Position numbers and translations under genes: made by a program. DNA of 64,000 bases from Lachnospiraceae bacterium (GTDB lineage Bacteria; Bacillota; Clostridia; Lachnospirales; Lachnospiraceae): assembly GCA_029005135.1 (NCBI GenBank), contig JAQXFO010000022.1, positions 2,589 to 66,588 of the forward strand, given 5' to 3'. This document shows, in pieces, positions 32,059-37,754 of the stretch. The notes under the pieces are model-generated. The model ran no database searches. It was not told where the DNA came from and was given only the letters and a program-made list of their open reading frames with translations. How positions within the stretch are numbered: position 1 is the first letter of the stretch; every line of letters starts with the position of its first letter.

Positions 32059-32835
32059 TCAGACATCCGCGGCCCGGTGGTATTCCCGCATCAGATCAGC
32101 CAGATAACTCTTCATATCGGCCGCCTCGGGATAACGCACGGCGGCCGCCGCTTCCCTGAGACCGCGGTCTATCTCCTCCCGCGTCCTGTCGTCGACGCCG
32201 CGCTTTTTCAGTTCTTCCTCATATTTCTCCCGGGGTCTGGCAATGGCACAGACATAGAGATAATCCTTAAGGGCCTCCCGGGTATAGGAAAGGCTCAGCG
32301 CCTTTTCAAAATCTGACAGGGCCTCCGGATACGCCAGAAGCTGCATATGGGCCACACCGATATTGTGCCAGACGGAAGCCGCCAGCACCTCGCCGGAGCG
32401 GCACTCCTCCATCCGCAGCACCTCCCGGTAGACGTTGACGGCGCCGGCGAGGCGGCCGCAGCGCACCAGAGCATCACCCTTCTTCTTCAGACGGACAGCC
32501 TCGCTGTCCCGGGACAGAGCCTGAAGCCGCCGCTCAAAGGCCTGCATATCCCGATGTGAGAGATACGCCTCCTCCCGGAGGATCGCCGTCACAAAAGGCG
32601 CCGTCGGCTCATCTTCCGCCAGTACCTTTTCCAGGGTGCGGGCCAGGGCCGCCATGCCGAGCTGCTCCTCAAACCAGCGGGCCAGTTCCCGGCAGACGAA
32701 GCTCTCGTCCAGCAGCGCCGTCTCATTGACGATAAAATAGCAGATCTCCTCGATCGAACGGGCATTGACGCCGATCGAAGCGATGTAGAACGGTTCCTCC
32801 GCTCTCTTAGTCAGGCAAAGTCTCAAACAACCCAT
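32059..32835 (-). CDS. TPR-repeat protein of unknown function
   Basis: Two recognisable TPR units (KKKGDALVRCGRLAGAVNVYREVL; WHNIGVAHMQLLAYPEALSDFEKALSL). ATG at 32835 has GGAGG 6 nt upstream. Confidence 0.7.
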   Translation of the reverse strand: MGCLRLCLTKRAEEPFYIASIGVNARSIEEICYFIVNETALLDESFVCRELARWFEEQLGMAALARTLEKVLAEDEPTAPFVTAILREEAYLSHRDMQAFERRLQALSRDSEAVRLKKKGDALVRCGRLAGAVNVYREVLRMEECRSGEVLAASVWHNIGVAHMQLLAYPEALSDFEKALSLSYTREALKDYLYVCAIARPREKYEEELKKRGVDDRTREEIDRGLREAAAAVRYPEAADMKSYLADLMREYHRAADV

Positions 32836-32879
32836 ACCACGCCTCCGTCGGGGTGCTCCCGGGCATCGCCCGGATCAGA

Positions 32880-34127
32880 TCACAAGTCCAGTTCCTCCTG
32901 CCACACAAGACCCGCCGGCGGATAGAAGCCGCCGAAGCCCAGGTCCTCGACCCGGATGAGACAGCGGGTCGGCGACAGCATGCTCACGCGAAGCGACAGC
33001 CGTGTCGTCCGGTTGGGCCGGTTCGGCAATCCCGGCAGATCCATCCGGCACTGACGTTTATCGCGTCCGCTGATAGGATTCAGGGAAAATGTCAGAGAGT
33101 CCGTATTATCCAGAATAAACTCACAGTATTTATCGGCGTCGAACCAGTTGCGTCCGGCGGAAATCAACGGGTAATAGGACGGCACGCCGCGGACGACCAT
33201 TTCCATGCCCAGGTTGGTACGGACCAGATCGTCTCCCATGTAGAGCTGTCCCTTCAGGCTGTGGGTCTCCTGTTTTTCCAGGGAGGTGTAGCAGGCCCCG
33301 CGGACATAGAGATTCTCACCGCTGAAGACATGGCGGCGGCTCTGGCAGAGGAAAGCTGTGGATCGGTCGGCCCAGGTCACGTCAAAGCCGCTGCCGCACA
33401 GATAAACCGATGAGAACAGCCGCCGGTTCATCTGCACCCCGGCAAAGGCCAGGAAGGCTTCGTCACGGGCGTATTTCTCCGCCGGCAGCTGTGTCTCCCC
33501 GCCTCGCAGCAGCCGCACGGAGGCCGGCCGCGTCGTGCGGTCCATCGTCAGAGACACGCAGCTGACGGTGTCGCCTTCAAATTCATAGAGAATCGCATCC
33601 CGGGTGCACAGCTCCGGCTTCTGAGAATAAACATAGTAATAGAAACTTTCCATGTGATTCTGAACTGTCAGTGCCTCCGGCGAAAGCCCCAGCGAAAAGC
33701 AGGCCGTACGCAGGTTATCCACCAGCCCCTTGGTCAGGGAACGTGTCGTGACGGTCAGATGGCTGATCGCTCGAATGACATCGCGAACCCCCGTCAGAGC
33801 CAGCGCCTTCTCGAGAAAAACAGCCAGAAGCGCCGCCGGCGTTTTCCTGCGTCCGTCCACCTCGACGTCAGCGGTGCCGCAGAAGACATCGTAGAGATCC
33901 GGTACCGGGACGCCGTTGTCCCGGGAACCGAAATAGTCGGCCTCCAGACCGAAATGCCACTCTTCTTTACCGGCGATCTTGGTCAGATGTGTCGGAAAGG
34001 TATAGAGATTGGTGCCCACCTTGACGGGGACGGACACAGGCTCGCCGGCACGGCGTTCGTAATAGCTGAGCTGACAGCTGTCACGGTTAAGTTCAAAGCC
34101 AATCAGAAGATTGCGGATCTCATTCAC
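32880..34127 (-). CDS. divergent lidless Hsp70-like protein (NBD + SBD-beta, degenerate phosphate loops)
   Basis: By-eye collinear match to DnaK. Matches are LLIGFELNRDSC / IGIDLGTTNSC, AILYEFEGDTVSCVSL / IAVYDLGGGTFDISII, VYLCGSGFD / ILVGGQTRMP, and LGMEM..GLPNRPNRTTRLSLRVSM / LGIET..GINPAPRGMPQIEVTFDI. The GTG start overlaps the upstream stop by 8 nt, with AAGGAGAGGA as SD. Confidence 0.72.
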   Translation of the reverse strand: MNEIRNLLIGFELNRDSCQLSYYERRAGEPVSVPVKVGTNLYTFPTHLTKIAGKEEWHFGLEADYFGSRDNGVPVPDLYDVFCGTADVEVDGRRKTPAALLAVFLEKALALTGVRDVIRAISHLTVTTRSLTKGLVDNLRTACFSLGLSPEALTVQNHMESFYYYVYSQKPELCTRDAILYEFEGDTVSCVSLTMDRTTRPASVRLLRGGETQLPAEKYARDEAFLAFAGVQMNRRLFSSVYLCGSGFDVTWADRSTAFLCQSRRHVFSGENLYVRGACYTSLEKQETHSLKGQLYMGDDLVRTNLGMEMVVRGVPSYYPLISAGRNWFDADKYCEFILDNTDSLTFSLNPISGRDKRQCRMDLPGLPNRPNRTTRLSLRVSMLSPTRCLIRVEDLGFGGFYPPAGLVWQEELDL

Positions 34128-37100: not shown

Positions 37101-37680
37101 ACACCGTCACAGCCTTTTTCCTGCCGGAAGCGACCAGAAAGGCCTCCAGCCTCTGAGCCGTCACCGGGTTGCGGGACAGGGCACGGTAGAGAGGCAGAAG
37201 TCCCTCATCCTCACCGGTCAGAAGCGACGGAAAACGGCGGCTTGAGAAAAGGCGCAGTGCCTCGCCCCCGGCCTGCTCGCTGAGAGCGGTGAACTCATCC
37301 AGCGTCTCGATACCCGCTGCCCGCCCTTCGCCGACGGCCTCCTCGATATCGAGCTCGATGGGGATGACCTTCTCGCCGGCCGAGGAAACGATCGTGACGG
37401 AAGCCTGCAGCGTATCACCCGGCCGGAGGCCCCGGACATTGATGCTGATTCTGACCGAAACCGACGTGCCGCGGAAGGTCTCCTCCGACAGTGTCACGCG
37501 GGGACTGTCCGTCGACAGGAAGCCGCGTATCGGAACATCCTCCTCCGTGCCGATATTAATCTCCGCCGCATAGTCCGAATCGGCAGGCACCGACGCCGTC
37601 AGGCGCTCCGGCGCCGTGATCAGTTCCGGCGCATCGGGTTCGTATTTCCCGGTAATAAGATGCTCTATTCTGCGTAACAA
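34120..37680 (-). CDS. 1186-aa cytoplasmic protein of unknown function (two N-terminal beta-sandwich-like modules + long helical region)
   Basis: Continuous ORF 34120..37800. I prefer the TTG at 37680 (GGGGGA SD 6 nt upstream), which lies downstream of the promoter at 37754-37726. No TM, signal peptide or catalytic motif recognised. Confidence 0.72.
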   Translation of the reverse strand: MLRRIEHLITGKYEPDAPELITAPERLTASVPADSDYAAEINIGTEEDVPIRGFLSTDSPRVTLSEETFRGTSVSVRISINVRGLRPGDTLQASVTIVSSAGEKVIPIELDIEEAVGEGRAAGIETLDEFTALSEQAGGEALRLFSSRRFPSLLTGEDEGLLPLYRALSRNPVTAQRLEAFLVASGRKKAVTVSVDQPSRAFYHVDSDTCESLRLTRHTWGLLNFRVETEGSFLEAVRRRITDQDFIGSVCDVPYIIHADRLGRTCCYGRLILTSDEQRLVFEVTASRRGPHRPNAAEAVRKSRARLMRLYLDFRMNRLDTAAWSRRSLMTITAVRDLGPCPVDITLYEAYVAWVSGDKGTASRLVRSLQDYDFSGESLEIKGSFLYLCHVLGLLTPGSIDVKARLRDWYQRCRESSVLMLILMQVDDELARSPGKKLRMMEEMDRSGCSSPLLYMEAVSLLRWQDSLLRLNAFTRRVLLFAARYDLMTEALYNRVCLLADNEKAFRPQMYRILTEGYDRWPSSEALEAICRHIMKGEPARPAYFRWYAEAVDKGVRLTRLYEFYIETIPPSFRDKLPLPIRKYFLLSGGVSRSRMAFIYANIVRNKTADPGTYDDYLPAMGEFTARALMDGAMDENYAVLYREFYPKADDRVIAGALAGTAFTARLYCDDPRMREVVVVHGELEGEICVKLKGGTAYIPLYTPEAVIAFCDARGARYASGVAYSLERFSDDEALTADCLKLGVMTPGLVLHACRRPEILDEEARLSALAYIADSDAFTTAYREKACRGILAYFTDHPLSTKAESLLSKVRDSLFVKTDRIGYLETLLTHALDAKAWYLMTRCGYERVNPALMMPLVSRRVREADGPDDSLLKAAFYVFSHDKYDDSILTYLMKYYTGPLDICLRIRQSAAAFYLETYDFDERILMQAMFVRRSLNDGGQILHSYRRQGGRARIVLAMMTFESHQAFRRLCPLNTYTRRLLEEAMDRKWELDGICLLALLQAYADQGSLDDEEERRADRILEIMAEDDIRLGFCRKLPRRALAGYGLEDRIFVETFAGPKDRVTLYYRLSSGPADTGEPFVSEPLREMCYGLYSREFVLFYGEVLTWYLKIEHNGVSRLTPERTETMARVDMTGRSRYQLINQMLSAQKLGKTEVLREKLRDYSRLTQMAAALFRLKEEGEDKGRE

Positions 37681-37699
37681 AAGTGTTCCCCCTGCGGAC

Positions 37700-37754
37700 T
37701 TGACCAGACATCTTTTACAGCGTAAATTATATATCAGTTCGCACTTTTGCGCAA
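37700..37754. promoter_or_regulatory. overlapping divergent promoters
   Basis: Plus strand: TTGACC (37700-37705), 17-nt spacer, TAAATT (37723-37728). Minus strand: TTGCGC (37754-37749), 17-nt spacer, TATAAT (37731-37726). The two -10 boxes overlap in taaattatatat. Confidence 0.5.

Follow-up and report, generated by a model that had tools for sequence, protein, structure and literature searches.

A conserved Lachnospiraceae operon encoding a degenerate Hsp70-like protein, a TPR protein and a large helical-repeat protein: a putative scaffold or holdase complex

The window analyzed here is a 64-kb stretch of DNA from a Lachnospiraceae bacterium (contig JAQXFO010000022.1), and all positions below are positions in that window. 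It contains an operon of three minus-strand genes, g1, g2 and g3 (together, the trio), which encode a large protein of the DUF5717 family, an Hsp70-like protein of the DUF5716 family and a tetratricopeptide repeat (TPR) protein (Table 1). A reading made earlier from the sequence alone had described such an operon, and all three open reading frames (ORFs) were found where it placed them. Both junctions could be read as described. The GTG start of g2 (34127) overlaps the TGA stop of g1 (34122-34120) by 8 nt, with AAGGAGAGGA upstream of the GTG, and a 44-nt gap separates g2 from g3, which has a GGAGG Shine-Dalgarno sequence. The predicted hairpin terminator is real; it is flanked by A6 and T4, the operon-strand T-run is short (four T), and a program scan scored the hairpin on the + strand. 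A near-consensus minus-strand promoter, TTGACA (32009-32004) and TATAAC (31986-31981) with a 17-nt spacer, lies within the loop and 3' arm of this terminator and presumably serves the downstream amino-acid ATP-binding cassette (ABC) transporter genes.

The promoter assigned to the operon, TTGCGC-17-TATAAT, was likewise found by reading the sequence; it was not in the output of a simple consensus scan. In related loci the motif GTGTATA[AC]T, which contains the -10 element, occurs upstream of g1 in 46 of 69 cases (0.25 expected from shuffles) at a median of ~62 nt from the g1 start, and TTGC(A/G)C precedes the -10 element at equal spacing. No CIRCE or CtsR operator was found at the trio promoter. 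A conserved AGTCAAG in the g1 leader was considered as a CtsR half-site and rejected, as it is the -35 box (TTGACT) of a divergent aminotransferase promoter. In the window, the + strand promoter TTGACC-17-TAAATT (37700-37728), assigned to the aminotransferase gene, overlaps the minus-strand g1 promoter at 37700-37754, and the two share their -10 regions.

The reading frame of g1 is open as far as 37800. Its start is placed at the TTG at 37680 (1186 aa) because a Shine-Dalgarno sequence lies 6 nt upstream and homologues share the resulting N-terminus: those in 69 other loci all start M-K/L-R-R-I-E. A Shine-Dalgarno-like sequence precedes the g1 start in 64 of 69 loci. The TTG itself (37678-37680) is kept in 57 of the 69, with GTG in eight and ATG in four, unlike g2 and g3, whose starts are nearly always ATG. 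Conservation of so rare a start codon behind a good Shine-Dalgarno sequence suggests that g1 translation may be deliberately tuned or regulated. The composition of the operon resembles its surroundings, as had been noted (GC content 0.60, as compared to 0.54-0.61 in the flanks). All three proteins are acidic (family median isoelectric point 5.4-5.7) and, in line with the earlier description, none has a transmembrane segment (maximum KD19 = 1.5).

Table 1 Features of the trio operon and of its products (window positions; domain boundaries within g1 and g2 are from AlphaFold2 models).
Feature	Position	Strand	Description
-35 box	37749..37754	-	TTGCGC; read in sequence
-10 box	37726..37731	-	TATAAT; 17-nt spacer from -35; read in sequence
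g1 Shine-Dalgarno	37687..37692	-	GGGGGA, 6 nt upstream of the TTG start
g1	34120..37680	-	1186 aa, DUF5717 family; Pfam and AlphaFold2 model
g1 residues 20-113			Ig/ASH-like sandwich (model)
g1 residues 127-184			Conserved helical linker with motif LEEFL..GKK (model)
g1 residues 193-286			Second Ig-like sandwich (model)
g1 residues 296-662			TPR-like alpha-solenoid (model)
g1 residues 664-728			Beta insert (model)
g1 residues 732-1045			Second alpha-solenoid, TPR-like (model)
g1 residues 1050-1126			Beta-sandwich (model)
g1 residues 1137-1173			C-terminal helical hairpin (model)
g2	32880..34127	-	DUF5716 family
g2 residues 1-290	33258..34127	-	Predicted Hsp70-type nucleotide-binding domain: lobes IA, IB and IIA, no IIB; degenerate phosphate loops
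g2 residues 294-415 and stop	32880..33248	-	Predicted beta-sandwich resembling the Hsp70 beta substrate-binding domain; conserved loops RPNRTTR (370-376) and DLGFG (395-399); no lid
g3	32059..32835	-	258 aa: N-terminal domain, TPR unit, C-terminal motif
Hairpin terminator	31993..32026	.	Stem 32019-32013 pairs with 32002-31996 (GCCCTCT...AGAGGGC)

Pfam searches confirm the family assignments given by the sequence-only reading. The g2 protein matches DUF5716_C (PF18980) over residues 123-415 (E 2e-92, 309.7 bits, cut-off 34.7), and g1 is a full-length member of its family, matching DUF5717_N over residues 1-865 (E 3e-204, 680.8 bits) and DUF5717 over residues 868-1174 (E 6e-79, 265.8 bits; cut-off 25; PF18984 and PF18983). 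Both proteins are thus high-scoring members of families without an assigned function.

An AlphaFold2 model of g2 was built with 58 homologues and reached a predicted local distance difference test (pLDDT) of 92.9 and a predicted template-modeling score (pTM) of 0.85. All top-50 Foldseek matches of this model in the Protein Data Bank (PDB) are Hsp70-family chains (DnaK, BiP, Hsc70, mortalin, Hsp110 and Ssz1, the last including 7x3k_B and 6sr6), with E-values from 3.6e-18 to 8e-13 and a best probability of 1.0. The matched chains hold both a nucleotide-binding domain (NBD) and a beta substrate-binding domain (SBD), and are not the many NBD-only entries. At the sequence level, g2 has no PF00012 (HSP70) match in Pfam at E ≤0.1, neither its profile nor phmmer returned an Hsp70 match among PDB sequences, and hhalign of the g2 family against E. 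coli DnaK gave a probability of 0.8%, a weak alignment in a sensible register. The chain ends at residue 415 in a beta-strand (408-414, pLDDT ~93) directly after the beta domain, with no helical lid or tail. The earlier description of g2 as a lidless Hsp70 paralogue is well supported by these matches and by the end of the model.

The predicted nucleotide-binding domain of g2 is ~290 aa long, as compared to 383 in DnaK. A single helix (218-233) lies between the strands assigned to lobe IIA (177-213) and the strand of the adenosine motif (238-246), at the point where DnaK carries the ~83-residue lobe IIB; the domain would be shorter because this lobe has been deleted. Over the 58 homologues, the phosphate-1 loop DLGTT has become [ED][FL][GN][RKE][EKD], in which the two threonines are replaced by charged residues. 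The positions of the phosphate-2 loop (DxGGGT) are variable, with F183 as the sole invariant residue. Other conserved motifs in this domain are ESFYYY (160-165) and NL..KGAC (272-279). As lobe IIB, the lid and the phosphate loops appear to be lost, the model indicates that g2 very probably does not run the Hsp70 ATPase cycle, and the ATP-independence raised as a possibility by the sequence-only reading is plausible given the degenerate motifs.

The description of g3 as a TPR protein also holds. Pfam detects TPR_1 and TPR_2 at residues 153-183, and the TPR unit spans residues ~115-190 (window 32266-32493). Residues 115-185 align in register with Hop TPR1 (K117=K8, D121=N12, N158=N43). Among natural proteins in the PDB, the g3 profile matches STI1, CHIP, FKBP51, Sec72 with an Ssa1 peptide, and SGTA (E 1e-5 to 7e-4), alongside generic TPR matches such as SPINDLY/OGT, IFT88 and APC subunits. 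The dicarboxylate clamp of three-TPR co-chaperone modules consists of K, N, N, K and R. At these positions K117 and N158 are conserved in g3, and N12 is replaced by an Asp (D121) that is invariant; inspection by eye showed no counterpart of R77, and the hhalign alignment stops short of the third repeat. The most conserved part of g3 is its N-terminal domain (residues ~1-60), with the consensus MSGYILCQTKRAE.PYYIENISTNIYSIEELCYY, and the extreme C-terminus has the consensus EYHRSTG (REYHRAADV in the window protein). Binding of an EEVD-like g2 tail by the g3 TPR was considered and rejected. The C-termini of g2 are not EEVD-like across the family, and a classical EEVD-type interaction is disfavored because of the Asp at the N12 position and the structured g2 C-terminus.

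A natural gene fusion bears on contact between g2 and g3. The g2 homologue P0016 has 692 aa; its residues 1 to ~417 are g2-like, and over residues 435-690 it is 42% identical to g3 (E 2e-62). Four further 692-aa variants, including NCBI HUM82255.1, occur on at least 19 contigs of independent origin. Because the variants lie on so many contigs, the fusion is a genuine gene, not an artifact of assembly. The fusion argues for direct contact between g2 and g3, in line with the interaction among the products that had been proposed earlier, and it also argues that the C-terminal beta domain of g2 may adjoin the N-terminal domain of g3 in the working assembly.

The third protein, g1, was modeled with a pLDDT of 85.5 and a pTM of 0.55. 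Given this pTM, the individual domains are reliable and their mutual arrangement is not. The view of g1 as a giant helical-repeat platform stands in so far as the protein is largely helical-repeat; it had missed four beta-sandwich domains. By Foldseek at the domain level, the N-terminal pair resembles ASH/Ig domains of ciliary central-pair proteins and the SPD-2 domain of CEP192, and the solenoids resemble the TPR/HAT scaffolds Ctr9, Ski3, Prp6 and UNC-45, with all template-modeling scores (TM-scores) ≤0.15. Homology to Ski3, Ctr9, UNC-45 or hydin is not claimed, as such matches are generic. Foldseek found no whole-protein relative, and a viral structure library returned BACON/Ig matches only. 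No match was found by profile or phmmer search of PDB sequences, single g1 domains returned DUF5717 alone from Pfam at E ≤10, and none of the trio proteins matched NCBIfam; the absence of homology between g1 and a characterized family, on which the earlier hypothesis depended, thus held in all of these searches. Conserved residues of g1 are mainly aromatic or hydrophobic and scattered along the chain, and no catalytic-looking motif was seen among them. The family comprises 3701 clusters at 50% identity (E ≤1e-3), the top 150 of which are all 1137-1272 aa long. On the basis of the model, the domain architecture of g1 is new.

Relatives of the trio were collected with one genome per species. At least 536 species have a g2 relative, and the best 80 loci were examined. 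Nearly all of these 80 are labeled as Lachnospiraceae genera or unclassified Clostridia; the genera named include Blautia, Fusicatenibacter, Oliverpabstia and Scatomonas, and one record is labeled Eggerthellaceae. The order g1-g2-g3 is found in 78 of the 80. One of the two loci without g1 lies at a contig end (L058), and the other has an integrase-like ORF in place of g1 (L028); a further locus (L010) is cut before g3. In L028, a contig of a Blautia metagenome-assembled genome (MAG; 5169-8453), g2 and g3 are present and the upstream ORF resembles a tyrosine recombinase (integrase) by eye, so either a mobile-element insertion/deletion or a chimeric assembly would account for the loss of g1. The median gap between genes of the trio is ~12 nt; at about 20 of their junctions, g1 and g2 overlap, by 4-17 nt. 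The order is also kept in distant members (L082, L083, L084, L087 and the contig pair L089/L090), which have other neighborhoods and 23-31% identity where measured; they include Lacrimispora (L087), likewise a Lachnospiraceae genus. Annotated copies of g1 and g3 that are nearly identical (99-100%) to those of the window occur in a MAG named 'Lachnospiraceae bacterium'. Co-occurrence of the three genes in other genomes, which the sequence-only reading had set in advance as a check on its hypothesis, was therefore found both in the close set and in distant lineages.

In the window and in many other loci, the trio is flanked by polC with an aminotransferase gene and, on its other side, by an amino-acid ABC transporter with purB; across dozens of genera this chromosomal site beside polC and purB is fixed. 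Also near the trio are ispG, purA, ATP synthase genes and aromatic amino-acid genes. No match to the trio was found in plasmids. Identity to the window is uninformative as a measure of co-divergence, since all loci are about equally distant from it; pairwise-identity matrices from 38 loci were instead compared by Mantel tests with permutation p values. The trio matrices correlate with that of purB (rho 0.67-0.84, p 0.001) and with one another (rho 0.83-0.92; g1 vs g2, 0.92), which fits vertical inheritance and joint evolution. Lengths are near-fixed (g1 1175-1197 aa, g2 414-426 aa). In all, the trio is a core operon passed on vertically in the sampled Lachnospiraceae lineages.

Whether Ig/ASH sandwich, TPR-like solenoid, TPR unit or Hsp70-type beta domain, every recognizable module of the trio is a peptide or protein binder. 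There is no catalytic module among them, and the sole ancestral enzyme, the Hsp70 ATPase, is degenerate. Binding-only modules, together with linked, tightly spaced and co-evolving genes and a natural fusion, make a scaffold or holdase without a nucleotide cycle the most economical reading. We tentatively propose, at close to but short of an even chance, that the trio may form a constitutive, nucleotide-independent scaffold or holdase complex with a putative client. The operon would be expressed constitutively from its sigma-A-type promoter and would yield a soluble three-protein complex, ~210 kDa if g1:g2:g3 is 1:1:1. In this complex the Hsp70 derivative g2 would serve as a permanent protein- or peptide-binding module, in the manner of Ssz1 in the eukaryotic ribosome-associated complex, with g3 as its dedicated TPR partner in direct contact. 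The 135-kDa g1, with two TPR-like superhelices and four beta-sandwich domains, would provide the platform, and the putative client would be scaffolded, held or assembled by the three proteins together, independently of nucleotide. The sequence-only reading had envisaged a dedicated chaperone or scaffold module of this general kind; the folds, the loss of motifs, the linkage and the fusion support that hypothesis in part, and we infer from them a complex that includes g1, ATP-independence, peptide binding, constitutive expression and the existence of a client.

Several points weigh against this proposal. The loss of lobe IIB from g2 is deduced from the order of secondary-structure elements in the model and not from a superposition. 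Of 58 g2 sequences, 52 still have an acid where DnaK has D8, and an adenosine-type G-x-G-F motif is retained (245-248), so that g2 may have kept residual nucleotide binding. The evidence that would place g1 in a complex with g2 and g3 is genetic. The trio also diverges rapidly, with a median pairwise identity of 40-45% as compared to 88% for purB (28041-29480); such divergence is unusual for a core chaperone, though it fits a scaffold. Finally, full-text searches of the literature by DUF name and Pfam accession gave nothing relevant on DUF5717 or DUF5716. By a rough estimate, the trio evolves about five times faster than purB.

A rather unlikely alternative is that the trio serves this lineage as an assembly factor in morphogenesis or development, for example in sporulation, the cell envelope or division; it would then be a structural scaffold for one such program and not a general holdase. 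Many Lachnospiraceae form spores, and the trio family appears confined to Lachnospiraceae. Its domains are all interaction modules, as this explanation would have it. In Lacrimispora the trio adjoins valS, followed by genes with a Peptidase_U4 (SpoIIGA-type) domain and a sigma-70-family domain, and in L084 it comes after a sigma-factor gene, a PRC-domain gene and nrdR. These neighbors vary by lineage, however, and are generic housekeeping genes; the promoter with its widely kept -10 element is sigma-A-like and unlike a sporulation-sigma promoter, and Pfam detects no sporulation protein domain in the trio.

It is improbable that g2 is still an ATP-driven chaperone with unorthodox nucleotide residues, in which g1 and g3 replace the J-protein and nucleotide-exchange roles. 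The two-domain Hsp70 fold is retained, as are the D8-equivalent acid, the adenosine-site motif and, in 36 of 58 sequences, a Gly at the G10-equivalent position. Set against these, the phosphate-2 loop is wholly unconserved and the model has no lobe IIB, the lobe that in canonical Hsp70s contributes one half of the nucleotide cleft and the site where GrpE docks. Neither Pfam nor hhalign relates g2 to Hsp70 at the sequence level, Pfam finds no DnaJ (J-domain) or GrpE domain in the operon, and the promoter has no heat-shock operator.

We give little credence to an RNA- or ribosome-associated complex, as proposed for CnuD of the Type III CoCoNuT systems or on the pattern of the eukaryotic ribosome-associated complex. 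CnuD, a degenerate Hsp70-like NBD/SBD protein with HEAT-like repeats, is a proposed RNA binder (PMC11090510), Ssz1 is among the structural matches of g2, and the g1 solenoids resemble the RNA-processing scaffolds Ski3, Ctr9 and Prp6 (E 1e-4 to 1e-3). The low TM-scores mark those solenoid matches as generic, however, Pfam finds no RNA-binding domain, and all three proteins are acidic.

It is very improbable that the trio is an anti-phage or conflict system centered on an Hsp70-like protein, the explanation least compatible with core-genome synteny. In its favor, degenerate-ATPase Hsp70-like proteins occur in CoCoNuT defense systems, the trio evolves much faster than its neighbors, and tblastn returned five matches in GenBank 'Bacteriophage sp.' records. 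Against it, PADLOC gave nothing for g1 or g2 and one sub-threshold match for g3 (PD-T7-1, E 0.023), PHROGs had no match for any of the three, and Pfam detects neither a nuclease or GTPase domain nor any other effector. The trio has a fixed chromosomal site, co-diverges with purB and gave no plasmid match, and the supposed phage records are unverified human-faecal metagenome scaffolds.

A phage origin of these matches was rejected on the evidence of the annotated record. This record (L082; MT835486.1, 'UNVERIFIED: Bacteriophage sp.') carries valS, a rarA-type gene and glycosyltransferase genes together with the trio; it is bacterial chromosomal DNA, because of its valS and rarA-type genes. A second record under the same label (L083; MT835719.1) has the trio with g1 cut by the contig end. 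In a MAG labeled 'Thermoflexaceae bacterium' (L089; GCA_029226085.1, Chloroflexota), the trio lies beside Clp ATPase, rarA-type and class-I tRNA-synthetase genes, and this taxonomy is probably mis-assigned, because the trio context is Firmicutes-like. In the lineage of L082, L089 and L090, a protein of 391/392 aa without a Pfam match is encoded directly after g3; by eye, its sequence in L082 resembles a coiled coil with hydrophobic segments. Neither the window nor any of the best 80 loci encodes a counterpart of this protein.

If the trio is a nucleotide-independent scaffold or holdase as we propose, its relation to known Hsp70 systems can be stated more closely. Like canonical Hsp70s (DnaK, HscA and HscC; PF00012), g2 has a predicted actin-like nucleotide-binding domain (IA, IB and IIA) followed by a beta-sandwich SBD. 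Unlike them, it appears to have no IIB, lid or C-terminal tail, its phosphate-1 and -2 loops are degenerate, and it has neither a sequence match to PF00012 or the PDB nor a J-protein or GrpE partner. A closer parallel to the predicted role of g2 is Ssz1/HSPA14, an atypical Hsp70 with a truncated SBD that performs no chaperone ATPase cycle and is a permanent structural subunit. Ssz1 is eukaryotic and ribosome-bound, keeps lobe IIB, binds ATP and has the J-protein zuotin as its partner. The partners of g2 would instead be a TPR protein and a DUF5717 protein, and no J-domain was found in the operon. CnuD, compared by description, resembles the trio in that an Hsp70-like NBD/SBD occurs together with helical repeats and its ATPase motifs are degenerate. 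It differs in sitting in McrBC-type defense operons with GTPase and nuclease partners, which the trio, part of the core chromosome, lacks.

The g3 protein resembles the TPR domains of Hop/Sti1, CHIP, FKBP51, SGTA and Sec72 in its register with Hop TPR1, and differs from the Hop/CHIP class in the Asp at the N12 position, in its extra conserved N-terminal domain, in its C-terminal EYHRSTG and in a partner, g2, without a free EEVD-like tail. A bolder form of our proposal, which we regard as possible though doubtful, is that g2 and g3 arose independently in bacteria as an equivalent of the Hsp70-TPR co-chaperone pairing, with g2 as a nucleotide-free 'fossil' Hsp70 acting as a permanent peptide clamp. 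An arrangement of this kind, an Hsp70 fold with a TPR partner, is to our knowledge usually regarded as eukaryotic, and a dedicated pairing in bacteria would be of interest for that reason.

The Pfam descriptions returned and the searchable literature mention neither the Hsp70 relation of DUF5716 nor the TPR protein as third gene. Likewise not described in that literature are DUF5716 as a predicted Hsp70 derivative without lobe IIB and lid, the obligatory TPR third gene, the g2-g3 fusions and the vertically inherited core operon. Lachnospiraceae are among the most abundant human-gut bacteria. An operon present across all lineages of the family sampled, with a housekeeping-type promoter, stands without a name, a literature or a predicted activity. 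For chaperone evolution, the model of g2 points to an Hsp70 pared of lobe IIB, lid and catalytic loops and yet kept over hundreds of species. If the bolder form of our proposal is correct, a family-specific housekeeping task in Lachnospiraceae would be carried out by a dedicated three-protein machine of ~210 kDa, the first of a new class of pseudoenzyme scaffolds derived from Hsp70, for which no equivalent has been described in bacteria. The function is directly testable, as Blautia and Lacrimispora are culturable Lachnospiraceae and the g2-g3 fusion is a ready construct for structural work. TPR and unannotated clusters have been reported as signatures of gut Lachnospiraceae (Meehan & Beiko 2014); the supplement of that study is too coarse to map onto the trio.

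Elsewhere in the window, one uninterrupted minus-strand ORF of 744 aa (22217-24451) has an N-terminal membrane helix and a coiled coil that resemble ATP synthase subunit b by eye, followed by an OSCP/delta domain (166-235) and a complete alpha subunit (387-733). It looks like either a b/delta-alpha fusion or the product of missing stop codons.

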